DNA of 64,000 nucleotides from Heterodontus francisci. Taxonomy: Eukaryota. The DNA lies in NCBI RefSeq assembly GCF_036365525.1, contig NC_090419.1, forward strand, positions 13,020,001 to 13,084,000. The letters are read 5' to 3'. Positions 12,404 to 64,000 of the stretch are shown here, piece after piece. The position numbers were made by a program, and so were the translations under genes. Below the pieces are notes generated by a model. The model worked only from the letters and a program-made list of their open reading frames with translations, was not told the origin of the DNA and did not search any database. Positions within the stretch are counted from its first letter, which is position 1, and every line of letters starts with the position of its first letter.

Positions 12404-12641
12404 CTGCGGAGAGAGGACAACAGTGAAACTGAAGGTACAGCATGGGGTCAGATGGAGAGTAAAGCTCCCACTACGCTGCTCAGTCCCAGATCCCAGCAGT
12501 AGTATGGGAGCAAGGTCGCGACTGTGAAACTGCACTGGCACGGAGGACGCAAACTCTCAGTCCGTGCATCAATCAGTGGCCCCAACAATGCTCCTCCAAC
12601 CAGGGAGTCAAAATCGGCAACTGAAACCTCGGGGGTCTTAC

Positions 12642-26064: not shown

Positions 26065-26660
26065 ATGGCTCCAAGTCCCATTCTAGAGACTCGAACACAC
26101 AAATCAAGCTGGCGTTGCCCAGGGTGGAGCTGAGGGAGCGCCGCACTGTCGGAGGGTCAGTACTGAGGGAGCGCCGCACTGTCGGAGGGTCAGTACTGAG
26201 GGAGCGCCGCACTGTCGGAGGGTCAGTCCTGAGGGAGCGCCGCACTGTCGGAGGAGCAGTCCTGAGGGAGCGCCGCACTGTCGGAGGAGCAGTCCTGAGG
26301 GAGCGCCGCACAGTCGGAGGGTCAGTACTGAGGGAGGGCCGCACTGTCGGAGGGTCAGTACTGAGGGAGCGCCGCACTGTCGGGAGGGTCAGTACTGAGG
26401 GAGGGCCGCACTGTCGGACGGTCAGTACTGAGGGAGGGCCGCACTGTCGCAGGGTCAGTACTGAGGGAGCGCCGCACTGTCGGAGGGTCAGTACTGAGGG
26501 AGCGCCGCACTGTCGGGATGGTCAGTACTGAGGGAGCGCCGCACTGTCGGGAGGGTCAGTACTGAGGGAGCGCCGCACTGTCGGGAGGGTCAGTACTGAG
26601 AGAGACTGGGTGGTGTTGGAGGTGCTGCCGGAGAAGACAAGGCCGTGTTATAGATGCAAG
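26065..26660 (+). repeat. Deu-domain (SacSINE1-like) SINE remnant with an internal 33-bp minisatellite (GTCAGTACTGAGGGAGCGCCGCACTGTCGGAGG)
   Basis: SINE-head-like CAAGTCCCATTCTAGAGACTCGAACAC precedes ~14 tandem 33-bp units. Confidence 0.8.
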
Positions 26661-36300: not shown

Positions 36301-39300
36301 ATCACCGTGTGGGGGAATCACAGACACTGACCCGCTTCCCATCACCGTGTGGGTTAATCACAGACACAGACCCGCGTCCCGTCACCGTGTGGGGGAAATC
36401 ACAGACACAGACCCGCGTCCCATCACCATGTGGGGAATCACAGACACAGACCCGCGTCCCATCACCATGTGGGGAATCACAGACGCAGACCCGCTTCCCA
36501 TCACCATGTGGGTGAATCACAGACCCGCTTCCTATCACCGTGTGGGGGAATCACAGACACAGACCCGCTTCCCGTCACCGTGTGGGGAATCACAGACGCA
36601 GACTCGCGTCCCGTCACCGTGTGGGGGAATCACAGACACAGACCCGTGTCCCATCACCGTCTGGGGAATCACAGACACAGACCCGCTTCCCGTCACCGTG
36701 TGGGGAATCACAGACGCAGACTCGCGTCCCGTCACCGTGTGGGGGAATCACAGACACTGACCCACATCCATCACCATGCTGGGGAATCACAGACACTGAC
36801 CCACGTCCCATCACCGTGTGGGGGAATCACAGACACAGACCCACGTCCCATCACCGTGTGGGGGAATCACAGACACAGACCCACGTCCCATCACCGTGTG
36901 GGGGAATCACAGACACAGACCCACGTCCCATCACCGTGTGGGGGAATCACAGACACAGACCCACGTCCCATCACCGTGTGGGGGAATCACAGACACAGAC
37001 CCACGTCCCATCACCGTGTGGGGGGAATCACAGACACAGACCCACATCCATCACCGTGTGGGGGAATCACAGACACAGACCCACATCCGTCACCGTGTGG
37101 GGGAATCACAGACACAGACCCACATCCGTCACCGTGTGGGGGAATCACAGACACAGACCCACATCCATCACCGTGTGGGGGAATCACAGACACAGACCCA
37201 CATCCATCACCGTGTGGGGGAATCACAGACACTGACCCACGTCCCATCACCGTGTGGGGGAATCACAGACACAGACCCACATCCGTCACCGTGTGGGGGA
37301 ATCACAGACACTGACCCACATCCATCACCGTGTGGGGGAATCACAGACACAGACCCACATCCGTCACCGTGTGGGAGAATCACAGACACTGACCCACGTC
37401 CCATCACCGTGTGGGGGAATCACAGACACAGACCTGCATCTCATCACCGTGTGGGGGAATCACAGACACTGACCCACGTCCATCACCGTGTGGGGGAATC
37501 ACAGACACAGACCCACATCCATCACCGTGTGGGGGAATCACAGACACAGACCCACATCCGTCACCGTGTGGGAGAATCACAGACACTGACCCACGTCCCA
37601 TCACCGTGTGGGGGAATCACAGACACAGACCTGCATCTCATCACCGTGTGGGGGAATCACAGACACTGACCCACGTCCATCACCGTGTGGGGGAATCACA
37701 GACACAGACCCACATCCATCACCGTGTGGGGGAATCACAGACACAGACCCACATCCGTCACCGTGTGGGGGAATCACAGACACAGACCCACATCCATCAC
37801 CGTGTGGGGGAATCACAGACACTGACCCACGTCCATCACCGTGTGGGGGAATCACAGACACAGACCCGCATCCCATCACCGTGTGAGGGAATCACAGACA
37901 CAGACCCACGTCCATCACCATGCGGGGGAATCACAGACACAGACCCACGTCCATCACCATGTGGGGGAATCACAGACACTGACCCACGTCCCATCACCGT
38001 GTGGGGGAATCGCAGACGCAGACCCGCGTCCCATCACCGTGTGGGGGAATCACAGACACAGACCCACATCCATCACCGTGTGGGGGAATCACAGACACAG
38101 ACCCACATCCGTCACCGTGTGGGGGAATCACAGACACAGACCCACATCCGTCACCGTGTGGGGGAATCGCAGACACTGACCCACGTCCCATCACCGTGTG
38201 GGGGAATCGCAGACACTGACCCACGTCCCATCACCGTGTGGGGGAATCGCAGACACTGACCCACGTCCCATCACCGTGTGGGGGAATCACAGACACAGAC
38301 CCACGTCACATCACCGTGTGGGGGAATCACAGACACAGACCCACGTCACATCACCGTGTGGGGGAATCGCAGACACTGACCCGCATCCATCACCGTGTGG
38401 GGGAATCACAGACACAGACCCACGTCACATCACCGTGTGGGGGAATCGCAGACACAGACCCACGTCCCATCACCGTGTGGGGGAAATCACAGACACAGAC
38501 CCGCGTCCCATCACCATGTGGGGAATCACAGACACAGACCCGCGTCCCATCACCATGTGGGGAATCACAGACGCAGACCCGCTTCCCATCACCATGTGGG
38601 TGAATCACAGACCCGCTTCCTATCACCGTGTGGGGGAATCACAGACACAGACCCGCTTCCCGTCACCGTGTGGGGAATCACAGACGCAGACTCGCGTCCT
38701 GTCACCGTGTGGGGGAATCACAGACACAGACCCGTGTCCCATCACCGTCTGGGGAATCACAGACACAGACCCGCTTCCCGTCACCGTGTGGGGAATCACA
38801 GACGCAGACTCGCGTCCCGTCACCGTGTGGGGGAATCACAGACACAGACCCGTGTCCCATCACCGTCTGGGGAATCACAGACACAGACCCGCGTCCCGTC
38901 ACCATGTGGGGGAATCACAGACACTGACCCACATCCATCACCATGCTGGGGAATCACAGACACTGACCCACGTCCCATCACTGTGTGGGGGAATCACAGA
39001 CACAGACCCACGTCCCATCACCGTGTGGGGGAATCACAGACACAGACCCACGTCCATCACCGTGTGGGGGAATCACAGACACAGACCCACGTCCCATCAC
39101 CGTGTGGGGGAATCACAGACACAGACCCACGTCCCATCACCGTGTGGGGGAATCACAGACACAGACCCACGTCCCATCACCGTGTGGGGGAATCACAGAC
39201 ACAGACCCACGTCCCATCACCGTGTGGGGGAATCACAGACACAGACCCACGTCCCATCACCGTGTGGGGGGAATCACAGACACAGACCCACATCCATCAC

Positions 39301-42300
39301 CGTGTGGGGGAATCACAGACACAGACCCACATCCGTCACCGTGTGGGGGAATCACAGACACAGACCCACATCCGTCACCGTGTGGGGGAATCACAGACAC
39401 AGACCCACATCCATCACCGTGTGGGGGAATCACAGACACAGACCCACATCCATCACCGTGTGGGGGAATCACAGACACTGACCCACGTCCCATCACCGTG
39501 TGGGGGAATCACAGACACAGACCCACATCCGTCACCGTGTGGGGGAATCACAGACACTGACCCACATCCATCACCGTGTGGGGGAATCACAGACACAGAC
39601 CCACATCCGTCACCGTGTGGGAGAATCACAGACACTGACCCACGTCCCATCACCGTGTGGGGGAATCACAGACACAGACCTGCATCTCATCACCGTGTGG
39701 GGGAATCACAGACACTGACCCACGTCCATCACCGTGTGGGGGAATCACAGACACAGACCCACATCCATCACCGTGTGGGGGAATCACAGACACAGACCCA
39801 CATCCGTCACCGTGTGGGAGAATCACAGACACAGACCCACATCCGTCACCGTGTGGGGGAATCACAGACACAGACCTGCATCTCATCACCGTGTGGGGGA
39901 ATCACAGACACTGACCCACGTCCATCACCGTGTGGGGGAATCACAGACACAGACCCACATCCATCACCGTGTGGGGGAATCACAGACACAGACCCACATC
40001 CGTCACCGTGTGGGGGAATCACAGACACAGACCCACATCCATCACCGTGTGGGGGAATCACAGACACTGACCCACGTCCATCACCGTGTGGGGGAATCAC
40101 AGACACTGACCCGCTTCCCATCACCGTGTGGGTTAATCACAGACACAGACCCGCGTCCCGTCACCGTGTGGGGGAAATCACAGACACAGACCCGCGTCCC
40201 ATCACCATGTGGGGAATCACAGACACAGACCCGCGTCCCATCACCATGTGGGGAATCACAGACGCAGACCCGCTTCCCATCACCATGTGGGTGAATCACA
40301 GACCCGCTTCCTATCACCGTGTGGGGGAATCACAGACACAGACCCGCTTCCCGTCACCGTGTGGGGAATCACAGACGCAGACTCGCGTCCTGTCACCGTG
40401 TGGGGGAATCACAGACACAGACCCGTGTCCCATCACCGTCTGGGGAATCACAGACACAGACCCGCTTCCCGTCACCGTGTGGGGAATCACAGACGCAGAC
40501 TCGCGTCCCGTCACCGTGTGGGGGAATCACAGACACAGACCCGTGTCCCATCACCGTCTGGGGAATCACAGACACAGACCCGCGTCCCGTCACCATGTGG
40601 GGGAATCACAGACACTGACCCACATCCATCACCATGCTGGGGAATCACAGACACTGACCCACGTCCCATCACTGTGTGGGGGAATCACAGACACAGACCC
40701 ACGTCCCATCACCGTGTGGGGGAATCACAGACACAGACCCACGTCCATCACCGTGTGGGGGAATCACAGACACAGACCCACGTCCCATCACCGTGTGGGG
40801 GAATCACAGACACAGACCCACGTCCCATCACCGTGTGGGGGAATCACAGACACAGACCCACGTCCCATCACCGTGTGGGGGAATCACAGACACAGACCCA
40901 CGTCCCATCACCGTGTGGGGGAATCACAGACACAGACCCACGTCCCATCACCGTGTGGGGGGAATCACAGACACAGACCCACATCCATCACCGTGTGGGG
41001 GAATCACAGACACAGACCCACATCCGTCACCGTGTGGGGGAATCACAGACACAGACCCACATCCGTCACCGTGTGGGGGAATCACAGACACAGACCCACA
41101 TCCATCACCGTGTGGGGGAATCACAGACACAGACCCACATCCATCACCGTGTGGGGGAATCACAGACACTGACCCACGTCCCATCACCGTGTGGGGGAAT
41201 CACAGACACAGACCCACATCCGTCACCGTGTGGGGGAATCACAGACACTGACCCACATCCATCACCGTGTGGGGGAATCACAGACACAGACCCACATCCG
41301 TCACCGTGTGGGAGAATCACAGACACTGACCCACGTCCCATCACCGTGTGGGGGAATCACAGACACAGACCTGCATCTCATCACCGTGTGGGGGAATCAC
41401 AGACACTGACCCACGTCCATCACCGTGTGGGGGAATCACAGACACAGACCCACATCCATCACCGTGTGGGGGAATCACAGACACAGACCCACATCCGTCA
41501 CCGTGTGGGAGAATCACAGACACTGACCCACGTCCCATCACCGTGTGGGGGAATCACAGACACAGACCTGCATCTCATCACCGTGTGGGGGAATCACAGA
41601 CACTGACCCACGTCCATCACCGTGTGGGGGAATCACAGACACAGACCCACATCCATCACCGTGTGGGGGAATCACAGACACAGACCCACATCCGTCACCG
41701 TGTGGGGGAATCACAGACACAGACCCACATCCATCACCGTGTGGGGGAATCACAGACACTGACCCACGTCCATCACCGTGTGGGGGAATCACAGACACAG
41801 ACCCGCATCCCATCACCGTGTGAGGGAATCACAGACACAGACCCACGTCCATCACCATGCGGGGGAATCACAGACACAGACCCACGTCCATCACCATGTG
41901 GGGGAATCACAGACACTGACCCACGTCCCATCACCGTGTGGGGGAATCGCAGACGCAGACCCGCGTCCCATCACCGTGTGGGGGAATCACAGACACAGAC
42001 CCACATCCGTCACCGTGTGGGGGAATCACAGACACAGACCCACGTCCATCACCGTGTGGGGGAATCACAGACACTGACCCAATCCCATCACCGTGTGGGG
42101 GAATCACAGACACTGACCCACGTCCATCACCGTGTGGGGGAATCACAGACATAGACCCGCGTCCCATCACCATGCGGGGGGAATCACAGACACTGACTCA
42201 CGTCCCATCACCGTGTGGGGGAATCGCAGACACAGACCCACGTCCATCACTGTGTGGGGGAATCACAGACACTGACCCACATCCATCACCGTGTGGGGGA

Positions 42301-42690
42301 ATCACAGACACTGACCCGCTTCCCATCACCGTGTGGGTTAATCACAGACACAGACCCGCGTCCCGTCACCGTGTGGGGGAAATCACAGACCCAGACCCGT
42401 GTCCCATCACCGTGTGGGGGAATCACAGACCCAGACCCACGTCCATCACCGTGTGAGGGAATCACAGACCCAGACCCGTGTCCCATCACCGTGTGGGGGA
42501 ATCACAGACCCAGACCCATGTCCATCACCGTGTGAGGGAATCACAGACCCAGACCCGTGTCCCATCACCGTGTGGGGGAATCACAGACCCAGACCCGTGT
42601 CCCATCACCGTGTGGGGGAATCACAGACACAGACCCACGTCCCATCACCGTGTGGGGATCACAAATGGAGACCCACATCCCGTGCAATCT
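30330..42690. repeat. 39/40-bp satellite array (~12.3 kb; CACAGACACAGACCCACGTCCCATCACCGTGTGGGGGAAT)
   Basis: Directly visible periodicity, with variant blocks recurring at kilobase scale. Confidence 0.98.
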
Positions 42691-42974: not shown

Positions 42975-45900
42975 ATAACCACCCGGCTCGACGGAGTACG
43001 AGATGTATAACTACCCGGATAGACAGAGTTTGATCTACATAAATACCCGGATACACGGAGCGTGATATATATAAATACCCGGATACACGGAGTGTGATAT
43101 ATATATATAACCACCCGGATACACGGAGCGTGATATATATATATAACTACCCGGATACACGGAGTGTGATATATATATATAACTACCCGGATACACGGAG
43201 TGTGATATGTATATATAACCACCCGGATACACGGAGCATGATATATATATATAACCACCCGGATACACGGAGTGTGATATATATATATATAACCACCCGG
43301 ATACACGGAGTGTGATATATATATATATAACCACCCGGATACACGGAGCATGATATATATATATAACCACCCGGATACACGGAGTGTGATATATATATAT
43401 AACTACCCGGATACACGGAGTGTGATATATATATATATAACCACCCGGATACACGGAGCATGATATATATATATAACCACCCGGATACACGGAGTGTGAT
43501 ATATATATATATAACCACCCGGATACACGGAGTGTGATATATATATATAACCACCCGGATACACGGAGTGTGATATATATATATATAACCACCCGGATAC
43601 ACGGAGCATGATATATATATATAACCACCCGGATACACGGAGTGTGATATATATATATATATAACCACCCGGATACACGGAGTGTGATATATATATATAT
43701 AACCACCCGGATACACGGAGTGTGATATATATATATATAACTACCCGGATACACGGAGTGTGATATATATATATAACCACCCGGATACACGGAGTGTGAT
43801 ATATATATATAACCACCCGGATACACGGAGTGTGATATATATATATATAACCACCCGGATACACGGAGTGTGATATATATATATAACCACCCGGATACAC
43901 GGAGTGTGATATATATATATAACTACCCGGATACACGGAGCGTGATATATATATATAACTACCCGGATACACGGAGTGTGATATATATATATAACCACCC
44001 GGATACACGGAGCGTGATATATATATATATAACCACCCGGATACACGGAGTGTGATATATATATATAACCACCCGGATACACGGCGTGTGATATATATAT
44101 ATATAAAACCACCCGGATACACGGAGCGTGATATATATATATATAACTACCCGGATACACGGAGTGTGATATATATATATAACCACCCGGATACACGGAG
44201 CGTGATATATATATATAACTACCCGGATACACGGAGCGTGATATATATATATAACTACCCGGATACACGGAGTGTGATATATATATATATAACCACCCGG
44301 ATACACGGAGTGTGATATATATATATAACCACCCGGATACACGGAGCGTGATATATATATATATAACTACCCGGATACACGGAGTGTGATATATATATAT
44401 ATAACTACCCGGATACACGGAGTGTGATATATATATATATAACTACCCGGATACACGGAGTGTGATATATATATATATAACCACCCGGATACACGGAGTG
44501 TGATATATATATATATAACCACCCGGATACACGGAGTGTGATATATATATATAACTACCCGGATACACGGAGTGTGATATATATATATATAACCACCCGG
44601 ATACACGGAGTGTGATATATATATATAACCACCCGGATACACGGAGTGTGATATATATATATATATAACCACCCGGATACACGGAGTGTGATATATATAT
44701 ATAACCACCCGGATACACGGAGTGTGATATATATATATAACTACCCGGATACACGGAGCGTGATATATATATATAACTACCCGGATACACGGAGTGTGAT
44801 ATATATATATAACCACCCGGATACACGGAGCGTGATATATATTTCTATAACTACCCGGATACACGGAGTGTGATATATATATATATAACCACCCGGATAC
44901 ACGGAGCGTGATATATATATATAACTACCCGGATACACGGAGCGTGATATATATATATAACCACCCGGATACACGGAGCGTGATATATATATATAACTAC
45001 CCGGATACACGGAGCGTGATATATATATATAACTACCCGGATACACGGAGCGTGATATATATATATAACTACCCGGATACACGGAGCGTGATATATATAT
45101 ATAACTACCCGGATACACGGAGCGTGATATATATATATAACTACCCGGATACACGGAGCGTGATATATATATATATAACTACCCGGATACACGGAGTGTG
45201 ATATATATATATAACCACCCGGATACACGGAGCGTGATATATATATATAACTACCCGGATACACGGAGCGTGATATATATATATAACCACCCGGATACAC
45301 GGAGTGTGATATATATATATATAACCACCCGGATACACGGAGCGTGATATATATATATATAACCACCCGGATACACGGAGCGTGATATATATATATATAA
45401 CCACCCGGATACACGGAGTGTGATATATATATATATATAACCACCCGGATACACGGAGCGTGATATATATATATATAACCACCCGGATACACGGAGTGTG
45501 ATATATATATATATAACCACCCGGATACACGGAGTGTGATATATATATATATAACCACCCGGATACACGGAGTGTGATATATATATATAACCACCCGGAT
45601 ACACGGAGCGTGATATATATATATAACCACCCGGATACACGGAGCGTGATATATATATATAACCACACGGATACACGGAGTGTGATATATATATATAACC
45701 ACCCGGATACACGGAGTGTGATATATATATATAACCACACGGATACACGGAGTGTGATATATATATATAACCACACGGATACACAGAGTGTGATATATAT
45801 ATATAACCACCCGGATACACGGAGTGTGATATATATATATAACCACCCGGATACACGGAGCGTGATATATATATATATAACCACCCAGATACACGGAGCG

Positions 45901-47364
45901 TGATATATATATATAACCACCCGGATACACGGAGCGTGATATATATATATATAACCACACGGATACACGGAGTGTGATATATATATATATAACCACCCGG
46001 ATACACGGAGTGTGATATATATATATAACCACACGGATACACGGAGCGTGATATATATATATATAACCACACGGATACACGGAGCGTGATATATATATAT
46101 ATAACCACACGGATACACGGAGCGTGATATATATATATATAACCACACGGATACACGGAGCGTGATATATATATATAACCACACGGATACACGGAGCATG
46201 ATATATATATATAACCACACGGATACACGGAGTGTGATATATATATATATATATATATATATAACCACACGGACACACGGAGTGTGATATATATATATAT
46301 ATAACCACACGGATACACGGAGCGTGATATATATATATAACCACACGGATACACGGAGCGTGATATATATATATAACCACACGGACACACGGAGTGTGAT
46401 ATATATATATATAACCNNNNNNNNNNNNNNNNNNNNNNNNNNNNNNNNNNNNNNNNNNNNNNNNNNNNNNNNNNNNNNNNNNNNNNNNNNNNNNNNNNNN
46501 NNNNNNNNNNNNNNNNNNNNNNNNNNNNNNNNNNNNNNNNNNNNNNNNNNNNNNNNNNNNNNNNNNNNNNNNNNNNNNNNNNNNNNNNNNNNNNNNNNNN
46601 NNNNNNNNNNNNNNNNNNTGTGATATATATATATATAACCACACGGATACACGGAGCGTGATATATATATATAACCACACGGATACACGGAGCGTGATAT
46701 ATATATATAACCACCCGGATACACGGAGCGTGATATATATATATAACCACCCGGATACACGGAGCGTGATATATATATATATAACCACCCGGATACACAG
46801 AGTGTGATATATATATATATAACCACCCGGATACACAGAGTGTGATATATATATATAACCACCCGGATACACGGAGTGTGATATATATATATAACCACCT
46901 GGATACACGGAGTGTGATATATATATATAACCACCCGGATACACGGAGTGTGATATATATATATAACCACCCGGATACACGGAGTGTGATATATATATAT
47001 ATAACCACCCGGATACACGGCGTGTGATTATATATAACCAGCCAACTACACGGAGCGTACTATATATAACCACACGGATACACGGAGTATGATATATATA
47101 AACTCCCAGATACAGGGAGCACGAGATGTGTAAATACCCAGATACACAGAGCGTGATATATATATATATATATAACCACCCGACTACACAGAGCATGATA
47201 TATATATATATATAACCACACTGATACACGGAGTATGATATATATATATATATATATAACCACACGGATACACGGAGTGTGATATCTATATATATATATA
47301 TATATATATAACCACACGGATACACGGAGCGTGATATATATATAACCACACGGATACACGGAGT

Positions 47365-47401
<37 letters not shown>

Positions 47402-47542
47402 CCACACGGATACACGGAGTGTGATATATATATATATATATAACCACACGGATACACGGAGCGTGATATCTATATATATATATATAACCACACGGATACA
47501 CGGAGCGTGATATATATATATAACCACACGGATACACGGAGT

Positions 47543-47581
<39 letters not shown>

Positions 47582-49065
47582 CCACACGGATACACGGAGT
47601 GTGATATATATATATAACCACACGGATACACGGAGTGTGATATCTATATATATATAACCACACGGATACACGGAGTGTGAGATATATATATATATAACCA
47701 CACGGATACACGGAGTGTGATATATATATATAACCACACGGATACACGGAGTGTGATATATATATATAACCACACGGATACACGGAGTGTGATATATATT
47801 TATATATATAACCACACGGATACACAGAGCATGATATATATATATATAACCACACGGATACACGGAGTGTGATATATATATATATATATATAACCACACG
47901 GATACACGGAGTGTGATATATATATATATAACCACACGGATACACGGAGTGTGATTATATATAACCAGCCAACTACACGGAGCGTACTATATATAACCAC
48001 GCGGATACACGGAGTATGATATATATAAACTCCCAGATACAGGGAGCACGAGATGTGTAAATACCCAGATACACAGAGCGTGATATATATATATAACCAC
48101 CCGACTACACAGAGCATGATATATATATATATAACCACACGGATACACGGAGTATGATATATATATATATATATATAACCACACGGATACACGGAGTGTG
48201 ATATCTATATATATATAACCACACGGATACACGGAGCGTGATATATATATATAACCACACGGATACACGGAGTGTGATATATATATATATATTATATATA
48301 TATATATATATATAACCACACGGATACACGGAGTGTGATATATATATATATATATAACCACACGGATACACGGAGCGTGATATCTATATATATATATAAC
48401 CACACGGATACACGGAGCGTGATATATATATATAACCACACGGATACACGGAGTGTGATATATATATATATATATATATATAACCACACGGATACACGGA
48501 GTGTGATATATATATATATATATATATATATAACCGCACGGATACACGGAGTGTGATATATATATATAACCACACGGATACACGGAGTGTGATATATATA
48601 TATAACCACACGGATACACGGAGTGTGATATATATATATAACCACACGGATACACGGAGTGTGATATATATATATATATATATATATAACCACACGGATA
48701 CACGGAGTGTGATATATATATATAACCACACGGATACACGGAGTGTGATATATATATATATATATATATATATAACCACACGGATACACGGAGTGTGATA
48801 TATATATATATATATATATAACCACACGGATACACAGAGCATGATATATATATATATAACCACACGGATACACGGAGTGTGATATATATATATATATATA
48901 TATATAACCACACGGATACACGGAGTGTGATATATATATATAAATATAACCACACGGATACACGGAGTGTGATATATATATATATATATAACCACACGGA
49001 TACACGGAGTGTGATATATATATATATATATATATATAACCACACGGATACACGGAGTGTGATAT
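42975..49065. repeat. Compound satellite AACCACCCGGATACACGGAGTGTG(AT)n, ~39-60 bp units; contains gap 46417-46618
   Basis: A constant ~24-bp core alternates with a variable-length (AT)n tract. Confidence 0.97.
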
Positions 49066-51210
49066 GTATAAACTCCCGGATACACAGAGCGTGGGTGTAA
49101 ATACCCAGATACACGGAGCGCGAGATGTATAAACACCCAAATACACAGAGCGCAAGATATATAAATACCTGGATACACGGAGCAGGAGATGTGTAAACAC
49201 CCGGGTCTACGGAGTGAGGGCAATATAAACAGCTGGGTATGCAGAGTGGCAGATATATTAAAACCCAGGTACGCGGAGCGGACAATATATAAACACCAGT
49301 GTAAATGGAGCTGGATATATAAACACCCGGGTACTCAGAGCGGGAGATATATAAACACCCAGGTACTCAGAACGGGAGATATATAAACACCTGGGTACAC
49401 AGAATGGGGGATATATAAACCCCTGGGTGCACGGAGCGGGAGATATATAAACCTCTGGGTGCATGGAGCACAAGATATCTCAACACCCGGGTACACTGAG
49501 CAGGAGATATATAAACACCCGGGTACACTGAGCGGGAGATATATAAACACCCGGGTACACTGAGCGGGAGATATATAAACACCCGGTACACTGAGCGCGA
49601 GATAAATAAACCCCTGGGTACACTGAGCCGGAGATATATAAACACCCGGGTACACGGAGCAGGAGATATATAAACCCCTGGGTGCACGAAGCACAAGATA
49701 TATAAACACCCGGGTACACTGAGCGGGAGATATATAAACACCCAGGTATACTGAGTGGGAGATATATAAACACCCGGGTACACTGAGCAGGAGATATATA
49801 AACACCCGAGTACACAGAGCGGGAGATGTATAAACATTGGGTACACTGAGTGGGAGATATATAAACACCCGGGTACACTGAGCGTGAGATATATAAACCC
49901 CTGGGTACACTGAGCCGGAGACATATAAACACCCGGGTACACTGAGCAGGAGATATATAAACACCCAGATACACAGCGCGAAATATATAAACACCCGGGT
50001 ACGCAGAGCGCAAGATATATAAACACCCGGGTACACTGAGCGGGAGATATATAAACACCCGGGTACACTGAGCGGGAGATATATAAATACCCGGGTACAC
50101 TGAGCACGAGATACATAAGCACCTGGGTACACTGAGCGGGAGATATATAAACGCCCGGGTACACTGAGCAGGATATATATAAACACCGGGGTACACTGAG
50201 CAGGATATATATATATAAATACCCGGGTGCACAGAGCGGGAGATATATAAACACCCGGGTACACTGAGCGGGATATATATAAACACCCGGGTACACTGAG
50301 CGTGAGATACATAAACACCTGGGTACACTGAGCGGGAGATATATAAACACCCGGGTACACTGAGCAGGAGATATATAAACACCCGGGTACACTGAGCGGG
50401 AGATATATAAACGCCCGGGTACACTGAGCAGGAGATATATAAACACCTGGGAACACTGAGCAGGATATATATATAAACACCCGGGTACACAGAGCGGGAG
50501 ATATATAAACACCCGGGTACACTGAACGGTAGATATATAAACACCCGGGTACACTGAGCACGAGATACATAAGCACCTGGGTACACTGAGCGGGAGATAT
50601 ATAAACACCCGGGTACACTGAGCACGAGATACATAAGCACCTGGGTACACTGAGCGGGAGATATATAAACGCCCGGGTACACTGAGCAGGATATATATAA
50701 ACACCGGGGTACACTGAGCAGGATATATATATAAATATCCGGGTGCACAGAGCGGGAGATATATAAACACCCGGGTACACTGAGCGGGATATATATAAAC
50801 ACCCGGGTACACTGAGCGTGAGATACATAAACACCTGGGTACACTGAGCGGGAGATATATAAACACCCGGGTACACTGAGCAGGAGATATATAAACACCT
50901 GGGTACACTGAGCGGGAGATATATAAACGCCCGGGTACACTGAGCAGGAGATATATAAACACCTGGGAACACTGAGCAGGATATATATATATATAAACAC
51001 CCGGGTACACAGAGCAGGAGATATATAAACACCCGGGTACACTGAACGGGAGATATATAAACACCCGGGTACACTGAGCGCGAGATACATAAGCACCTGG
51101 GTACACTGAGCGGGAGATATATAAACACCCGGGTACACAGAGCGAGATATATATAAACACCCGGGTACATGGAACGTGAGATACAAAAACACCTGGATAC
51201 ACTGAGCAGA
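49066..51210. repeat. ~32-bp satellite AAACACCCGGGTACACTGAGCGGGAGATATAT, related to the preceding array
   Basis: Visible periodicity. Its core ACCCGG(G/A)TACAC(T/G)GAGCG is shared with the 42975-49065 array. Confidence 0.95.
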
Positions 51211-51388
51211 TTAAATTTAAGCCCTGTTGCATTTTTTATCTGGTCACCTCCTTGCTTCTTCGCTTCCCCCTTTTGGTCTCCTTTCTTTGGCAGCTCCTTC
51301 AGAACTTGCTGCAAAATTGCAAAGAAAAATATTCCATTACAGAGAGTCTGAGTGAACCCAGAATTATTATAAACCGACCCAGAACCCA

Positions 51389-51503
51389 ACACTGTTCCCG
51401 TCCATCAAACACTCCCAGGACAGGTACAGCACAGGGGTTAGATACCGAGTAAAGCTCCCTCTACACTGTCCCACATCAAACACTCCCTGGACAGGTACAG
51501 CAC
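51389..51503 (+). repeat. ~70-bp tandem repeat, left flank (target) of the Tx1 element
   Basis: CCATCAAACACTCCCAGGACAGGTACAGCACAGGGGTTAGATACCGAGTAAAGCTCCCTCTACACTGTC, ~1.6 units ending in ...ACAGGTACAGCAC. Confidence 0.9.
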
Positions 51504-52277
51504 TGGGATTGGCTGGTCAATTTGGAGCACTTCCTGCCAGCAATCAGGGGGAGCAGCTGCACCTGTGTTGCAGCAATTGCAGAGTGGAGATTGGAGACTG
51601 CAGCAACTGGAGAAAGGTGAATACAGAGTGGAGAGTGGAGACTGCAGCAACTGGAGAAAGTTGAATACAGAGTGGAAACTGCAGCAACTGGAGAGAGAGA
51701 TTGGAGAAAGGTGAATACAGAGTGGAGGGAAACCATCAAGGAAGGCTGCAATTTTTCTGGAGAGGTGGGTGTCAGGGCACCTGAAAGACTATTAAGTTTA
51801 AACTGTTTGGGGGAGGGAGAAGAGGCCTGAAGACTCAGGGGTGGGGCAGCCAAATCCAGTAAGGGCCCCTGTGTTTGTATTGGTGTTTGCACACAGGGAG
51901 CTCCCTCCCCACCCCAACTGCCTGCTCGGGACAGCTGGAGTTGCCCGGGTGAAGACTGTCTTGTTAAAATCAGAAGAGGAGAGTACCGAGCGGCTCCAGC
52001 TGTCCCGGGCGAAGAAGCCTCCCCCAACTGGAAGACAACAAACAAGTTTGGACTAATTGTGATAAAGGTGCTCCAACTGGCAGTTGAAACAAACATCCTT
52101 TTCAGCCTTTCTCTCCCTTCCTCCACTCAGTCGCCTCAATCACCTATCCTCCCCTTTTCCTTTACCATCCTACGCCATCCTCCTCTACTCCCACTCCACC
52201 TTGTTTAAAGTTTGCTTTTTTTAAAAATTGTGTAAATTTGTTTTGTTTCTTGGGGGTGGACGTAGCTCTTAGACCCC

Positions 52278-54317
52278 ATGGCAAGCCCCTCTTCGCCGGT
52301 GGCGGGGCCTTCCCGTTCATATGCTGCTGCGGCTGCTGCAGCTGCACCTGTTGCCCTGTCACCGTTTGCTTTTTTAACAACGAAGCATGGGGTCAAGAGC
52401 TACGTCCACCCGAACATGACTATAGAGGCATGCGTGAAAGCAATGGCCGAGGTTGTCGGCCCTTCGGCCATTGTTGCAGCCTCTAAAATGTACGGGAAGG
52501 CAGTGTTTTTCCTGAAGACCGAGCGGGCGGTGTCCCTGGCTCTGAGCAAGGGGCTCACCGTGGGCGGGACCTTTCTGCCAGTGGACCCCCTGGAGGCCAC
52601 TGCGCAAAGGCTCATTTTATCCAATGTCCCACCCTTCATCCCTGGTGAGCTCCTCCTTCCCCACCTGCACCATCTGGGGGAGGTAAAGACGGGGCTCACC
52701 CCAGTCCCGCTCGGTCTTCGGGAGAACAGCCTCCGACACGTCTACTCCTTCCGCCGCCAGTTATTCATGCAGCTGGCGCGGGAGGAGGTGACAGAGGGCC
52801 ACTTCAATGTCGAATTCCAGGGGACGGCCTACCGCGTCTTCTGGACCTTGGACGGGGTGCGGTGCCATGTCTGTAAGGGGGTGGGGCATGTTCGTAAGAA
52901 CTGCCCCAACCTCCCGGCTGCCAACTCCAACTCAGCGGCCCAGGGTGGCGACGCTGCACCTCCTCCCACCCCCACTACACCACCACCAGATACCATTCAG
53001 TCGGTACCGGAGGCTGTGGTTTTCACGGCCTCCGGCAGGGAGGGGGGTGACCGTCCAAGTGGAAGGAAGGCGCGGAGGAGAAATAAACATCGAGAGGCGC
53101 GTCCCCTGGATATCGTGACACTACCCGAGCCTGAGCTCAGCCCAAGGCCCGATCTCGGGAAGTCAACTTGCCCCAGGGCTGGGCTCAGGCCCAGGGTGAA
53201 TAAAAAAAAGGAGAGTGTGGAGGTGGAGGCCTCTGATGATATGGAGGTCTCTGAGCCTCCGCACACAACTGGGAAAAAGAGGAGAAGGCACCCCTCCACA
53301 GAGGTAACAAGGGGCCCTGAGGCGCAGGGCCCATCTGTTGGAGGGGAGCTGTCTCCTGTTTCGGGTCCCCAGGTTTCCCCTACCGCCACCACCAAGGCTG
53401 CAAAGTCCGGGCAGGTGCTCCCAATTCCTCAGGATGGAGGGAAGGGGATGGCCCCGGTACATGAGGCCCCTACTGAAGGAGTAAGTGGGGCCCTGCTTGT
53501 GGTGGGGGAGCCTGGGGAAGCCGCCCATTCTGCCACTGCTACTGGGTCGGGTGTCCTGAATGAAGGGGAGGGCGAGGCCCCAGAGGGTCGGGCCTCCCAG
53601 CCGGAGTCCACCACCAACCAGGAGACACCCGACCCAGTTATAACTGAGAATGCTGCCCCACCTGCTGGGCCTGTGGGTGCTGGCGGAGCGGGAGATAGCC
53701 TCCTCCCTCCGCCTCCAATCTCGGCTCCGGCTGGTTTCCCGGAGTCGGGAACTTCTGTCTCCCCTGGACCACTCATTGCCCTGGGGACGGAGGTGGAGGG
53801 GGGTCCTGAGCCGCTGGTGCCTACAGGCTCCAGTTTCACAATAGAACCCAGAGAGGACTCCTCCGCCATCGATCCTGGGGGTGGGATCGTGACGGAGGCG
53901 GGACCAGCTGGCGCGGCCGGGACGTCCGCCCCACAGTGTGTGGTGGATGTGTTGGCCGCTGGCGGTGACGACCCGGAGGAGGATGGGGATTCGGTGCGGG
54001 GCACGGAGGATGATCTTGATTCCATCGCCAGTGAGGTGGTGGAGTCCCTCGTGCCTCCCACCGAATCTCCTCTCATCCCCACGGCGGAACTCCGGGATTT
54101 CCTCGCGGCTTGCAGGGGTTGCCGCAATAAAGTTCAGCTGGCCCTCGACCGTTGATCGAATCTGGCGCTGATCATCCAGTCCGTCCGTGCCGCCCTTAAG
54201 ATAGCGGGCAAGCGCGCGGACGTGAAACTGGTTGAGAGGCGCCGTTTTAATGTGTTCCTCAATGGGTTGCTGGGGGAGTGGAGGGCCAGGTGCACTTCCA
54301 CTCCCTCCTCACAGTGA
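52278..54317 (+). CDS. Tx1 ORF1 gag-like protein (in-frame TGA at 54153-54155; frame continues 53 aa to TGA 54315-54317)
   Basis: IEACVKAMAEVVGPSAIVAASKMYGKAVFFL, RLILSNVPPFI, HVYSFRRQLFM and CHVCKGVGHVRKNC are typical Tx1 ORF1 motifs. Confidence 0.88.
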
Positions 54318-54349
54318 GGTGTTGGTGACGGGTTTTAAGTACCTTTGAC

Positions 54350-57300
54350 ATGAAGATAACCATAGCCAGCCTCAACATCAACGGCAGCAGAGGGGCTCAC
54401 CGCAGATTTCACAATCTCTCAGTCCTTAGGGAAGGGAGATACGCGGTGAGCTTTCTGCAGGAAACCCACACCGTTCCGGGAGACGAAGCCACCTGGCTCC
54501 TGGAGTGGCAGGGTGGGGTCTACATGAGTCACCTCACCCCTATTTCTAGTGGGGTGGCTATCTTGTTGGCCCCGACTTTTCAGCCGGAGATCTTGGGGGT
54601 CAAGGAGCTAGTGCCGGGCCGCTTGCTCCACCTCGCCGTTCGCCTGGGTAGCGTGCCGCTCCACTTTGTGAACGTGAACGCGCCCAGGCCCGGCGCTTTG
54701 CAAGCGCGCTTCTTTGAAGAAGTGTCCGCTCTCTTGAGCTCCATCGATAGCGGCGAGTGCATCATCCTCGGGGGGGATTTTAACTGCACCCTCGAGGTGG
54801 GGGATCGCTCCGGTCCCCAGCGCGGCCAAGCGTCGGTGGAGAAGTTGAGGGGACTGATCAGCTCCCTTAACTTGGTGGACGTCTGGCGGAATCTCCATCC
54901 CGACTCCAGCGCCTTCACGCGGAGGTCTGGAGGAGGGGGGTCGCGAATCGACCGCCTCTACATTTCGCAGGCGTACGTCTCCCGCGTTTCGGCGGCCTCC
55001 ATGCGGCTGGTGCCGTGCTCGGACCACCGCCTGGTGTGGGCGGAGTTCACTCCGCTCCGCACGCGGGCGGGGTCCGCGTACTGGCACTTTAACAACCGGC
55101 TGCTGGAGGACGTGCGATTTCGGGACTCGTTCTGTCGATTCTGGGCCGACTGGAGAAGGAAGCAGGGGGGCTTCCCCTCCTTGAGGCTATGGTGGGATGT
55201 GGGCAAGACTCACATCCGCGTCTTCTGTCAGGAGTACGCGAAGGGGTCGACCAAAAGGCGGGAAGCCGAGATCGGGCGCCTTGAGAGGGAGGTGCTCGAC
55301 TTGGAATCCCGCCTCGGTCATGCCGTCGCGGACCCGGCCCTGTGGCAGGCGTACAAAGAGAAGAAGGGCGCGCTGAGGAACCTGCAGCTCATAGGGTCCC
55401 GAGGCGCGTACGTGAGGTCGCGGATCCAGATCCTGGAAGATTTGGACCGCGCCTCACCCTTCTTCTACTCGCTGGAAAAATGGCGGGGGGTCCGTAAGCA
55501 GCTCGTTGAGCTGCTGGCCGACGACGGATCCTCCATCACGGATCCGGAGGGAATGGGCCTCCTGGTCCGGACGTATTACAGTGCGTTGTTCTCTCCGGAT
55601 CCGTCCAGTGAGGATGCGCGCAGAGTTTTGTGGGAGGACCTGCCGCAGGTCAGCCCGGAGGGCGCCGAAGGATTGGAGGCTCCGCTCACGTTGGCGGAGC
55701 TGACTGGCGCCCTCCACCAGCTCTCGAGGGGCAAATCCCCAGGGCTGGATGGGTTGACCGTGGAGTTCCTCAGGGCGTTCTGGGATGTCCTGGGGGACGA
55801 TTACGCGGGGGTCCTGGGGGAAAGCCTGGCGACCGGGGAGATGCCCCTCTCGTGGCGCAGGGCGGTCATCGTCCTGCTGCCGAAGAGGGGCGATCTCCGC
55901 CTGCTTAAAAACTGGCGTCCGGTCTCCCTCCTCAGCACGGATTATAAGATCTTTGCCCGGGCTATGTCTACCCGCCTGGGCTCCGTGCTGGCCCACATGA
56001 TCCACCCCGACCAGTCCTACACGGTCCCGGGCCGGTCCATCCAGGACAACATCCACCTGGTCCGGGACCTGATCCATCTTTCCCAGAGGACTGGTCAGTC
56101 GGTCGCCTTTCTCTCCCTCGATCAGGAGAAGGCGTTCGACAGGGTGGATCACGATTACCTTTTCGGGACTCTGCGCGCTTTCGGACTCGGGCCGCATTTC
56201 GTGGCCCGGGTCCGACTTTTATACGCCGCCGCAGAGTGTCTAGTCAAAGTTAACGGGTCCTTGACGGCGCCCCTTCGATTTGGGAGAGGAGTGCGTCAGG
56301 GGTGCCCCATGTCCGGCCAATTGTATACCATCTGCGTGGAGCCCTTCCTGTGCCTGCTTCGCAGGAGGTTGACGGGATTGGCTCTGCGCGAGCCGGCCAT
56401 GCGGGTCGTCCTCTCGGCTTACGCCGACGACGTGCTCCTCGCAATCACAGATCCCGTTGACTTGCGGAGGATGCGCGACTGCCAGCAGACCTTTTCTGCC
56501 GCGTCCTCCGCGAGGATCAATTGGGAGAAATGTTCCGGACTCCTGGTTGGTCAGTGGCGGGTGGACTCCCTGCCGGAGGAGATGACACCTTTTGCGTGGA
56601 GCACCACGCACCTCCTCTATCTGGGAGTCCACCTTAGCCCCGCTGAGGAAGCCTGGCCGGCAAACTGGCAGGAGTTGGAGGCGAAAGTCACCGCTCGGCT
56701 GGGGCGCTGGACAGGACTGCTCCGAGTGCTTTCCTACAGGGGCCGAGCGTTGGTCATAAACCAACTGGTGGCCTCCATGCTGTGGTACCGGTTGGTCACT
56801 TTGGCCCCGCCCCCTGTATTTGCCACCAAGATCCAGAAGAAACTCGTCGATTTCTTCTGGGGCAAGAGGAAACACTGGGTCTCTGCCGCGGTCCTGAGTC
56901 TCCCGATCGAGGAGGGCGGTCAGTCGCTGGTGTGCGTCCGCACCCAGGCTGCGACTCTCCGCCTTCGGACCCTGCAGAGATACCTGTACGTCGAGCGTCC
57001 TCCCAGATGGTGTGCGCTGGCGACGTATTTTTTCCGCCAGTGTCACTGCCTTCAAGACGACACGCAGCTCCCGGTGGAGTCCGTTAGCCGCGCCTCTCTG
57101 AGGGAGTTGCCTGTCTTTTACCGGGATCTTTTCCGAGTCTGGAACATGGTCGCCTCCAGTCAGGGCGCTCCCCCGCCGGCGGAGGAGAGCGCCTCGGCTG
57201 TCCGGGCGGCCGACTCCGGGGACGGTCCGGCGGGCGGAGGAGTAGCCGGAACCCCCGGGACGCCCCTCACTGCGGGTGGCGAGGGGGCTCGGGAGTGCGG

Positions 57301-58087
57301 AGCGCTCCCGGCCGAGCTGACCCCCGCTCGGCCGGAACTGCTCATCGGACCCAGGCCCCGAAACCCTCCTCGGGAGCCGGTCCCGCACAACCCGAGCCGC
57401 CTCTCGGAAATGCCCTCCGTGCCATTCCAATCGGCGCGGAGGGGTTTCCTGTACGGGCTGCTCCTGCACACTCTCCACTTCCTCGCCCTCGTCAGCCGGC
57501 CGGACACGCCCTGGCGGTCCGCGTTGCCATCTGGCGGCGAGGGGAAACCCCGATGGAGGTCTCTCTACGCGGGAGTCTTCCCCCTTTACATCGGGGACCT
57601 GGGGTGGAGGGTGCTGCACAGAGCAGTCCCGTGCAATAGGCTTTTAAGTAGGTTCACGGACTCCCAGGCCAGCTGTACTTTCTGCGGCCTGGACGAGTCC
57701 GTGTTCCACATTTATACGGAGTGTGCGAGGTTGCAGCCCCTATTTGAGTATCTGAAGGGGCTGCTCCTCAAATTCTGGCTGCACTTCAGTCCCACGCTCC
57801 TGATCTTTGGGCACCCGGTGCGGAGGGGCTCAGGCCGGGAGGAGGATCTCCTCGTCGGTCTGCTCCTGGGCCTGGCCAAGGTGGCAATTCACAGGTCCAG
57901 GTTGCGGGCCGTCGGGGGGTCCGTCCTCCCCGATTGCCTGCCCATCTTCCGCGGTTTCGTTCGCGCCCGGGTGTCCCTGGAAAAGGAGCATGCGGTATCA
58001 GCCGGTACGCTTGAGGCCTTCCGCGACCGGTGGGCACCACAGGGACTGGAGTGCATCGTCAACGCCGAGAATGGCATTTTAATTTGA
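54350..58087 (+). CDS. Tx1 ORF2 polyprotein (APE endonuclease, reverse transcriptase, C-terminal zinc finger), 1245 aa
   Basis: SLNING, LQETH, GGDFN, SRIDR, SDH; KSPGLDG, NWRPVSLL, LDQEKAFDRVDH, GVRQGCPMS, YADD; CTFCG...H...C. Confidence 0.97.
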   Translation: MKITIASLNINGSRGAHRRFHNLSVLREGRYAVSFLQETHTVPGDEATWLLEWQGGVYMSHLTPISSGVAILLAPTFQPEILGVKELVPGRLLHLAVRLGSVPLHFVNVNAPRPGALQARFFEEVSALLSSIDSGECIILGGDFNCTLEVGDRSGPQRGQASVEKLRGLISSLNLVDVWRNLHPDSSAFTRRSGGGGSRIDRLYISQAYVSRVSAASMRLVPCSDHRLVWAEFTPLRTRAGSAYWHFNNRLLEDVRFRDSFCRFWADWRRKQGGFPSLRLWWDVGKTHIRVFCQEYAKGSTKRREAEIGRLEREVLDLESRLGHAVADPALWQAYKEKKGALRNLQLIGSRGAYVRSRIQILEDLDRASPFFYSLEKWRGVRKQLVELLADDGSSITDPEGMGLLVRTYYSALFSPDPSSEDARRVLWEDLPQVSPEGAEGLEAPLTLAELTGALHQLSRGKSPGLDGLTVEFLRAFWDVLGDDYAGVLGESLATGEMPLSWRRAVIVLLPKRGDLRLLKNWRPVSLLSTDYKIFARAMSTRLGSVLAHMIHPDQSYTVPGRSIQDNIHLVRDLIHLSQRTGQSVAFLSLDQEKAFDRVDHDYLFGTLRAFGLGPHFVARVRLLYAAAECLVKVNGSLTAPLRFGRGVRQGCPMSGQLYTICVEPFLCLLRRRLTGLALREPAMRVVLSAYADDVLLAITDPVDLRRMRDCQQTFSAASSARINWEKCSGLLVGQWRVDSLPEEMTPFAWSTTHLLYLGVHLSPAEEAWPANWQELEAKVTARLGRWTGLLRVLSYRGRALVINQLVASMLWYRLVTLAPPPVFATKIQKKLVDFFWGKRKHWVSAAVLSLPIEEGGQSLVCVRTQAATLRLRTLQRYLYVERPPRWCALATYFFRQCHCLQDDTQLPVESVSRASLRELPVFYRDLFRVWNMVASSQGAPPPAEESASAVRAADSGDGPAGGGVAGTPGTPLTAGGEGARECGALPAELTPARPELLIGPRPRNPPREPVPHNPSRLSEMPSVPFQSARRGFLYGLLLHTLHFLALVSRPDTPWRSALPSGGEGKPRWRSLYAGVFPLYIGDLGWRVLHRAVPCNRLLSRFTDSQASCTFCGLDESVFHIYTECARLQPLFEYLKGLLLKFWLHFSPTLLIFGHPVRRGSGREEDLLVGLLLGLAKVAIHRSRLRAVGGSVLPDCLPIFRGFVRARVSLEKEHAVSAGTLEAFRDRWAPQGLECIVNAENGILI

Positions 58088-58280
58088 GTTTTTTTGTTTG
58101 TTTATCTGGTTTAATAAAGTTATTTTAAAACTGTAAATATGTACATAAAGGGGGCCTGAGGGATAAAGGCCCCCTCGATGTGAAAAATATAAAAGGGGCC
58201 TGGGGTATAAAGGTCACCTTGTGGAGAAAAAAAAAGGGTGTTTGTTTAAAAAAAAAGAAAAAAAAAAGAAAAAAAAAAAA

Positions 58281-58686
58281 ACGGGGGTTAGATACAGAGT
58301 AAAGCTCCCTCTACACTGTCCCCATCAAACACTCCCAGGACAGGTACAGTACGGGGGTTAGATACAGAGTAAAGCTCCCTCTACACTGTCCCCATCAAAC
58401 ACTCCCCAGGACAGGTACAGCACGGGGGTTAGATACAGAGTAAAGCTCCCTCTACAAAAAAAAAACGGGGGGTTAGATACAGAGTAAAGCTCCCTCTACA
58501 CTGTCCCCATCAAACACTCCCAGGACAGGTACAGTACGGGGGTTAGATACAGAGTAAAGCTCCCTCTACACTGTCCCCATCAAACACTCCCCAGGACAGG
58601 TACAGCACGGGGGTTAGATACAGAGTAAAGCTCCCTCTACAAAAAAAAAACGGGGGGTTAGATACAGAGTAAAGCTCCCTCTACAC
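58281..58686 (+). repeat. ~70-bp tandem repeat, right flank of Tx1, organised as 185-bp blocks separated by A10 tracts
   Basis: Units start ACGGGGGTTAGATACAGAG at 58281, 58351 and 58422. A10 tracts at 58456-58465 and 58641-58650. Confidence 0.92.
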
Positions 58687-60019
58687 TTGTTGAATAGCCG
58701 GCACTCACAGTTCAGACATGTGAGGAGACGCCCACTTGAGCAGAGTATCAAAGGCGCTCCCTTGGGTCCTGTACCCTGGCTTGGAGGGTGGGTGGGTTAT
58801 TGGGAACCCTGCCCCTGCTGCAGAGGTTGCCCGGAGGCCCAGTGGAGGCAGGGTTAGGCCTGGCCATGACGCCTCCCCATGGCTGAATATCCTGGCGGCT
58901 GCGGTCGGGAGAGGGGGAGCTGCACGGCTGCCCCAATCCGTTGGGGTGTGGGGGGGGCGGTGGGTTTTACCTTTTGCCCCTGGCATGTCGAGTGGTCTGT
59001 AGTCCAACTGCCGTCCGGTTCTGACCGTGGTGCGTGCGTGCGTGCGTGCGAGCGAGCGACTGCCTCCCCTGCTGAATTTATCAGGGTTGCGATTTGTAAG
59101 TAGAACTCTCCGGAAAATGAAAGCACGTGAGGCGAAGAGAAATGCCCGAGGCCCCAGTCTGCCTCACAATGGGTTCTGCCGAGTCGGCAGAGGGTGCGGT
59201 GGGGGTGGGGGAGGGGGGGGGGGCGGATGAAGGGCGGTTTCTGATTCCGCACTGGATCCGTGCGAGTTCACTGGATAATCCCACATTTATCCCTTTAATC
59301 CGAGGCTCTAAGCGCATCTGTTTCGGTCAATTGTCCCAGAGGAGAGGGGAACTCTGAGACCCTTGACCGTTGCCCTTTCTCAGCGTTGGCGCAGGTCATG
59401 GGGGCTTGGAGCCGTTCCAACTGGCTGGGGAAGCTGCTTCCCTTTTCAGTCTGGTTCCCTCTCCTGCCCCCAGCCCGGAATTAAACAGACTGGCTGCGTT
59501 TCCCGCACACACAGAGCTACGAGAGCCACCTCTTCCCAGAGCCTCTTAACAGCAGCTACGTCCCTCACTCCACAACCTGCGACCCCTCTCTCCCCACCAC
59601 CCCACTGCCCCAGCACCCCCTCCCCATCTCTGTAACCTCCTCCAGCCCCCTACGACCCCTCCCTACCTCTGTAACATCCTCCAGCCCCCTACAACCCTCC
59701 GAGATCTCTAACCCCGATTCCCATCGCTCCACCATTGGCGGCCGTGCCTTCAGCTGCCTGGGGCCCTGAGCTCTGGAATTCCCTCCCTGAACCTCTCCGC
59801 CTCTCTCTCTCCTCTTTTAAGACGCTCCTTAAAAACCGACCGAGCTTTTGGTCGCCTGTCCCTAATAGCTCCTGATGTGGCTCGGGGTCAAAATTTGTTT
59901 GATTTATGCTCCATGGGGTCTCAACTGGAGCAGCAATTGGGGTTTTGATCGTTGCCCTGGTTTAGGGAGGGGAATTGCAGCAGGGCTCCTGTTCCTGATC
60001 AACAGGCAGTAACCCCTGT

Positions 60020-61907: not shown

Positions 61908-63070
61908 GGTCAGTACTGAGGGAGCGCCGCACTGTCGGAAGGTCAGTACCGAGGGAGCGCCGCACTGTCGGAGGGTCAGTACTGAGGGAGCGCCACACTG
62001 TCGGAAGGTCAGTACCGAGGGAGCGCCGCACTGTCGGAGGGTCAGTACTGAGGGAGCGCCACACTGTCGGAAGGTCAGTACCGAGGGAGCGCCGCACTGT
62101 CGGAGGGTCAGTGCTGAGGGAGCGCCGCGCTGTTGGAGGGTCAGTACTGAGGGAGCGCCGCACTGTCGGAGGGTCAGTACTAAGGGAGCGCCACGCTGTC
62201 GGAGTGTCAGTACTGAGGGAGTGCCGCACTGTCGGAGGGTCAGTACCGAGGGAGCGCCGCACTGTCGGAGGGTCAGTACTGAGGGAGCGCCGGACTGTCG
62301 GAGTGTCAGTACTGAGGGAGTGCCGCACTGTCGGAGGGTCAGTACTGAGGGAGTGCCGCACTGTCGGAGGGTCAGTACTGAGGGAGTGCCGCACTGTCGG
62401 AGGGTCAGTACTGAGGGAGCGCCGCACTGTCGGAGGGTCAGTACTGAGGGAGCTCCGCACTGTCGGAGGGTCAGTACTGAGGGAGCGCCGCACTGTCGGA
62501 GGGTCATGACTGAGGGAGCGCCGCACTGTCGGAGGGTCATGACTGAGGGAGCGCCGCACTGTCGGAGGGTCATGACTGAGGGAGCGCCGCACTGTCGGAG
62601 GGTCAATACCGAGGGAGTGCCGCACTGTTGGAGGGTCAGTACCGAGGGAGCGCTGCACTGTCGGAGGGTCAGTACCGAGGGAGCGCCACACTGTTGGAGA
62701 GTCAGTACCGAGGGAGCGCCGCACTGTCGGAGGTGCGGTCTTTCAGGATGAGACATTAAACCAAGTCCATGTCTGCTCTCTCAGGTGGATGTCAGAGATC
62801 CCACGGCCACAACTGGGAGGAGCGGGGTGGGGTTTGGAGGGATGGGTGGGGGAGTGGATGGAGTTCTCTCCGACTTCCTGGGGCCAATTGCCATCCCTGA
62901 ACCAACATCACTAAACAAACCGATGATCTGGGGTCGTTATCACATTGCTGTTTGCGGGATCCTGCTGTGCGCAGAATGGCTGCTGCGCTTCCGACATTAC
63001 AGCAGTGACCGCACTTCAACTGAAAGTTATTCACTGGCACTTTGGAAAGTCTGGAGGTGTTGAGAGGCAC
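61908..63070 (+). repeat. 33-bp minisatellite (~25 units, 61908-62732) embedded in a Deu-domain (SacSINE1-like) SINE
   Basis: The last unit runs into GGAGGTGCGGTCTTTCAGGATGAGACATTAAACC and ...CACATTGCTGTTTGCGGGATCCTGCTGTGCGCAGAATGGCTGC, typical of the Deu-SINE body. Confidence 0.82.
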
Positions 63071-63712: not shown

Positions 63713-64000
63713 GAATCCAATGGACCCAAACCCCTTCCCGTTCACTCCCACTGTACACAATCCCAATGGACCCAAACGCCTTCCCGTTCATTCCCACTGT
63801 ACACAATCCCAATGGACCCAAACGCCTTCCCGTTCATTCCCACTGTACACAATCCCAATGGACCCAAACCCCTTCCCATTCACTCCCATTGTACACAATC
63901 CTAATGGACCCAAACCCCTTCCCGTTCACTCCCATTGTACACAATCCCAATGGACCCAAACGCCTTCCCGTTCATTCCCACTGTACACAATCCCAATGGA
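63713..64000. repeat. 46-bp tandem repeat (AATCCCAATGGACCCAAACGCCTTCCCGTTCATTCCCACTGTACAC)
   Basis: TGGACCCAAA recurs every 46 bp (63721, 63767...). Confidence 0.93.

Follow-up and report, generated by a model that had tools for sequence, protein, structure and literature searches.

A Tx1-clade retrotransposon in a 70-bp repeat of Heterodontus francisci, with a probable 3′ transduction and local duplication at its 3′ junction

A Tx1-clade non-LTR retrotransposon of Heterodontus francisci, at 51504–58247 on the forward strand of the window (the whole stretch of DNA analysed, 64,000 nucleotides in length), is inserted at one phase of a 70-bp host repeat and is followed downstream by its own A-rich tail and by two nearly identical blocks of that repeat, each of which ends in a pure A10 tract. 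This arrangement is best explained by a single 3′ transduction that was inserted at the target site of the family and was followed by a 185-bp tandem duplication, either in the animal or in the assembly, a reading to which we give a probability of about one half. The targeting of the 70-bp repeat by this Tx1 family is real, and the junction pattern, taken as sequence, lies far beyond chance.

The Tx1 element and its 70-bp target

The element appears to be full length, and it was covered as multi-copy sequence in 4/4 of the public sequencing runs compared (X1, X5, X8, and X10, all as assembled contigs, with X8 and X1 coming from the same sample). Sequence of the stretch was present in 20 of 24 rows of public runs, the best of which may have supplied the assembly. 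ORF1 (52278–54317, forward strand) contains a CCHC zinc knuckle motif at residues 196–209 and matches PF00098 with an E value of 0.007 and 16.8 bits, which is below the cut-off of 20.8; it also carries an in-frame stop at 54153–54155 that is private to this copy, with 63,072 of 63,082 in depth in run X1 differing from the window at this codon. ORF2 (54350–58087, forward strand, 1245 aa) is open and contains an N-terminal APE endonuclease (PF03372, E 7e-16), a reverse transcriptase (RT; PF00078, E 3e-38), and a C-terminal CCHC motif. Aligned over 948 aa, ORF2 is 55% identical to Xenopus Tx1; a Heterodontus fragment reaches 93% (350 aa) and a Hemitrygon protein 74% (435 aa). The RT tree, whose 22 rows remained from 30 proteins picked by hand out of 121 after eight with short RT cover had been dropped and which has no named L1 outgroup, groups the element with Xenopus Tx1, one sturgeon protein, and three turtle proteins with support 100/100. 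The two CCHC-bearing ORFs, the APE and RT domains of ORF2, and the RT grouping place the element in the Tx1 clade of LINEs. This copy is young but not fresh, differing from the contigs of run X5 at 36 of 5292 letters (0.7%). In run X10 (organism B), the element was found in long contigs covering 53748–57741 with a difference of 0.6% (23/3993 in the two longest contigs), and among the pieces listed its flanks had no cover; this may reflect a close relative, recent shared activity, transfer, or contamination.

The 3′ UTR (58088–58247, forward strand) contains two related 44-bp hairpin units, and its only AATAAA lies 135 nt before the tail and a TATAAA 42 nt before it, with no closer signal. Other copies of the element in the public contigs end at 58093, 58108, 58175, and 58220, indicating that 3′ end formation in this Tx1 family is loose and layered. 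The 5′ UTR also contains tandem repeats of 44 bp at 51580–51727 (about three copies), and joints in run X8 that leave out 74 and 112 bp point to variation in their number.

On the left side, the remnant of the host array (51389–51503, forward strand) consists of a partial unit, a full diverged unit (51432–51502), and the C at the insertion site, and it ends at that C. The downstream unit takes up directly from there, which would make the target duplication of this copy 1–2 bp. A target duplication of 71 bp for the full element was rejected, since the four variants of the left unit are absent downstream. The same preference for one phase could be seen in the public contigs: seven joints between element and repeat, or between element and the A tract that precedes the repeat, were present among the 27 joints listed (15 of 376 plus 12 of 178 with letters between, both sides being required to lie on the stretch), and 7/7 of these fall at unit phase 0–7. 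Five of them are element 3′ ends and two are 5′-truncated ends at phases 0 and 4; six came from run X8 and one from X1. This indicates that the family homes to one phase of the repeat. Of the three 5′ junctions available, two fall at phase 0 (this copy, and 51432 to 57932 in X8) and one at phase 4 (58427 to 58138 in X8); they imply target duplications of about 1–5 bp, not 33 bp.

Several observations concern the repeat itself. The outer edges of the array (51389–51395 and 58680–58690) both lie at about unit phase 33–37, where the A10 break falls as well; an empty array would then comprise a whole number of units plus a short terminal overlap, and the shared edge phase may hint at how such arrays are laid down. 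In run X8, 27 contigs at 58392 and 21 at 58577 leave the unit at one common phase and continue in a shared recurring sequence (with an agreement of 0.6 and 0.71, respectively), so that the 70-bp unit may elsewhere sit within a larger dispersed element. With regard to 58282–58686 in runs X8 and X1, 5627 of the 7825 contigs placed from the run guessed to be of RNA matched two places of the stretch, as compared with 10116 of 42871 from the DNA run. This hints weakly, the run type being a guess, that the repeat is widely transcribed. A diverged solo unit (83%) lies at 12433–12478, just upstream of an exon of an EBP-family gene (12240–12403, reverse strand). Other tandem arrays dominate the window, at 1–6211, 26130–26604, 30337–42657, 43006–51207, 61908–62733, and 63717–64000, with units of 22, 33, 39, 36/32, 33, and 46 bp, one unit being common to both 33-bp arrays.

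Searches for relatives of the repeat were negative within their scope. Rfam gave no match in the 64-kb window, the 70-bp repeat included, and the repeat had no match as text in the literature searched; no 7-mer derived from it occurred in the 121 proteins compared. A protein search with a junction-spanning reading frame returned four candidates, none of them significant. Repeat or junction patterns had no match in viral contigs, metagenome contigs, or prokaryote genomes, as expected for animal DNA, and these blanks speak for neither side.

The 185-bp period of the junction region

The initial annotation described the region downstream of the element as an A tract, about 174 bp of target, A10, the same block, A10, and then target, and this layout is borne out by splitting 58248–58686 (forward strand throughout): the element's own tail A9GA10GA12 (34 nt, 58248–58281), block 1 (174 bp, 58282–58455), a first A10 (58456–58465), block 2 (175 bp, 58466–58640), a second A10 (58641–58650), and the right host-array remnant (36 bp, 58651–58686), after which the unique flank begins. 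The periodicity that it named was likewise recovered by Tandem Repeats Finder (period 185, 2.3 copies, 99% match), and C-G5/6-TTAG indeed stands directly after all three A tracts, at 58282, 58466, and 58651, the G runs being G5, G6, and G6 in order. The old tail of the element is interrupted by G, whereas the new tail is pure A. Each block is made of units of 70 and 71 bp plus the first 33 bp of a third unit, and the two blocks have no substitution between them, the sole difference being one G in the first G run; their two variants stand in identical order, with the same cut point and the same A10 length. No further A6+CGGGG junction was found in the window on either strand.

A single local duplication accounts for this period. 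The right remnant (with G6) and the start of block 1 share 34 bp of homology, and when a starting string of tail, block 1, A10, 36-bp remnant, and flank was modelled, a crossover at 35/35 positions in this homology rebuilt the observed string exactly, including G5/G6/G6 and the equal A10 tracts. When re-priming on one RNA was modelled with A lengths from 5 to 14, none of them reproduced the string exactly. Crossover within the A tracts was rejected, having failed in 11/11 cases. Because one crossover reproduces the string exactly, one A10 junction, and not two, needs to be explained. The part of this argument that depends on G5 and G6 rests on one homopolymer base, where a sequencing error is possible. 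If the duplication is as old as the insertion, the probability of finding no substitution in 174 bp is 0.09–0.35, and the age of the duplication is therefore uninformative. There is about one chance in six that the 185-bp duplication is an assembly error with the same signature as a real one.

The initial annotation had offered serial 3′ transduction or template jumps beside tandem duplication, and had taken the near-identity of the blocks to fit either duplication or re-use of a template. Transduction and duplication need not compete, since duplication is what explains the period (35/35). If one RNA had been used again, block 2 should carry G5, yet its run is G6. A second round of read-through, or reverse transcription of the same 3′ piece twice in one insertion, would explain why the insertion phase of the family follows each A tract, and concatenated reverse-transcribed pieces are known for L1 (PMC11702581). 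Serial transduction is nevertheless unlikely: it would call for another array that holds both variants in the order seen here and for a renewed cut at the third AGTAAA, and blocks drawn from different sites should differ, yet 0 substitutions in 174 bp, an equal cut, and an equal A10 were found. The copy in the window is, moreover, no fresh source, given the private stop in ORF1 and the distance of 0.7% from the contigs of run X5. For R1, Stage and Eickbush took junction blocks that were identical to reflect the amplification of one event (PMC2718515). Both forms together appear quite improbable, and a single transduction best explains the A10 junction.

Origin of the A10 junction

The proposed route to this junction begins with a Tx1 LINE that would nick the 70-bp repeat at one phase, the phase being shown by the junctions. 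Transcription of a source copy would have run past its genomic A tail and on into the repeat beyond, a read-through that could be attributed to the lack of a close poly(A) signal at the element's own 3′ end. The read-through RNA would have been cut and polyadenylated at a C followed by A, 17 nt after the start of the third AGTAAA, and the whole RNA, comprising the element, the old tail, 174 bp of target, and the new poly(A), would have served as template for reverse transcription at that phase of a small array at this locus. If the first unit of the 174-bp piece later mispaired with the 36-bp remnant, 185 bp might have been duplicated, through unequal crossover or slippage or through an assembly error of the same signature.

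The features expected of such a transduction, namely the element tail, downstream DNA, and, at the endonuclease site, a second tail of pure A, are all present. AGUAAA is the third most frequent human poly(A) signal and typically lies 10–30 nt upstream of the cut (PMC12421377), and a candidate signal, the AGTAAA of the third unit at 58439–58444 (forward strand), precedes the first A10. This motif, named in the initial annotation as a known variant poly(A) signal, begins 17 nt before each A10 and ends 11 nt upstream of it, but it is not specific to that place: it occurs in 7/7 repeat units, while A10 follows only the third unit of each block. The presence of a putative signal 10–30 nt before the second tail is thus weak evidence, since every unit carries one. 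The A10 break falls at a C followed by A, and only 3/70 unit positions are of this kind within an interval of 15–30 nt, which was chosen after the data had been seen.

Block 1, the putative transduced piece, differs from the majority unit by 2 edits in 174 positions, as compared with 8 edits in 113 columns for the left remnant (Fisher p 0.016), a contrast that weakens to p 0.062 when the ragged left edge is set aside, the full unit alone having 4/72. Block 1 has none of the variants of the left flank and looks as if it came from another array. No source copy followed by such a block was found in the public contigs, which break within the repeat. A target duplication bracketing the transduced insert would be 1–2 bp, which is too short to discriminate between the readings.

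The position of the break also bears on the idea of a slip in DNA replication, in which synthesis would have jumped from the final part of the native array back to the ten A that close the element tail, through 1-bp microhomology and with further homology steps. Such a jump is consistent with a break at an A, with the A10 and A12 runs held in the tail, and with a break lying only 2–3 bp from the natural right edge of the array, and small tandem duplications have been reported at L1 insertion sites (PMC11702581). A single jump, however, yields 428 of 473 bases and leaves 45 over, so that two more homology jumps are required, giving three steps versus two for transduction plus duplication, and it does not predict a C followed by A at poly(A)-signal distance. 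This last point favours transduction about fourfold and no more, because 5/21 A positions of the unit fall in the same interval. We consider the DNA jump unlikely.

The 33 bp preceding A10 equal the 33 bp following it, barring one G, which raises a further possibility: the element would lie in a native array of four units, and a separate abortive insertion of poly(A) only, with a target duplication of 33–34 bp, would have been followed by the 185-bp duplication. This model rebuilds the string as it would have stood before the duplication, again barring one G. A target duplication of 23 bp has reportedly been seen for Xenopus Tx1L. Tandem insertions "sandwiching a TSD" are described for the Tx1-mobilised SINEU-3 (PMC4494074) and for R1 (PMC2718515). 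On the other hand, the three 5′ junctions imply duplications of 1–5 bp, APE LINEs generally give 10–20 bp (PMC6895275), and two insertions in one short array would be required; no statement on A-only insertions was found in the literature searched, including the available parts of PMC11702581 and PMC7058536. An insertion of this type therefore seems rather unlikely. A second element that was later deleted and left A10 as its stump was also dismissed, since 5′ junctions lie at phase 0–4 and not at 33.

The remaining doubt concerns the assembly, where the collapse of a repeat might have produced the A10 junction itself; satellite makes up most of the window, and no listed contig spans an A10 junction. 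Against this, contig 7 of run X1 matches 58660–58948 with 0 differences at depth 6.09, its start lying 10 nt past the last A10, and confirms the right edge and flank, and contig 1 of the same run covers 51215–51429 with 3/215 letters different at depth 3.27. Both flanks are single-copy and real, and single-copy flanks in X1 would anchor long reads; an assembler also has no simple source for a pure A10 between CTCTAC and CG6. An artefact of this kind is very improbable. The depth of the left contig is about half that of the right flank, and it is possibly the second allele and a place to look for the empty site. No CTCTAC-A(n) joint, empty site, or 185-bp skip was present among those listed (15 of 376 joints, 12 of 178, and 24 of 1570 loose ends), and since the comparison used contigs, which drop rare variants, and skipped 58239–58290 as repeat, this absence is no evidence.

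Relation to known systems and meaning

Members of the Tx1 clade are known to target a DNA transposon, U2 genes, microsatellites, and satellites (PMC4494074, PMC1950540, PMC1919474), and a family is regarded as target-specific when more than 20% of its copies are flanked by one target type (PMC4494074). The family described here resembles Tx1L of Xenopus laevis and the target-specific part of the clade in its two ORFs, its APE and RT domains, and its use of one phase of a multicopy target; that part of the clade includes Keno, Kibi, Koshi, Tx1-Mar, and satellite-targeting families (PMC4494074). Unlike the known Tx1 systems, its target is a 70-bp repeat and its apparent target duplication is only 1–5 bp. 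The literature searched, which extended neither to Repbase nor to subscription journals and supplements, gave in the parts available no account of the 70-bp repeat, of this Tx1 family, or of transduction by Tx1.

3′ transduction has been described for L1, R7Ag, and R1Bm (PMC7265360), and roughly one in four L1 insertions includes such a piece, which is often short and has poly(A) on both sides (PMC13009371). The locus in the window shares with these cases the order of element, old A tail, downstream DNA, and new A tail, and a variant poly(A) signal that would set the end. Unlike them, the DNA carried here is the element's own target repeat, and it is observed as one copy in the germ line rather than in a tumour or a cell assay. 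Drosophila R1 offers another parallel, with transcripts that include downstream target and identical junction blocks attributed to one amplified event, but R1 carries no more than 14 nt of target and no second A tail, as compared with 174 nt and a second A tail here (PMC2718515).

Taken as a whole, the locus shows a real pattern and a real target specificity, and its history probably comprises a single transduction followed by a local duplication. It is a neat example and not a new principle, because both steps are known in other jumping genes. Its contribution is a further Tx1 family, one whose target is a minisatellite, together with what is probably a natural instance of 3′ transduction by a LINE of the site-specific kind, a process known earlier mainly from L1 and, in assays, from R1-clade elements. 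The suggestion in the initial annotation that the element copies and expands its own target could apply at most to this one event, with 2.5 units added. It is distinctly unlikely that the family habitually reads through, that the AGTAAA of the unit serves as a real poly(A) signal, and that each such insertion brings new units to the target phase, so that the LINE spreads and enlarges the minisatellite on which it depends; if true, an abundant elasmobranch repeat would be amplified in a loop driven by a retrotransposon. If such junctions were common genome-wide, they would offer a testable route for the spread of dispersed minisatellites in shark genomes.
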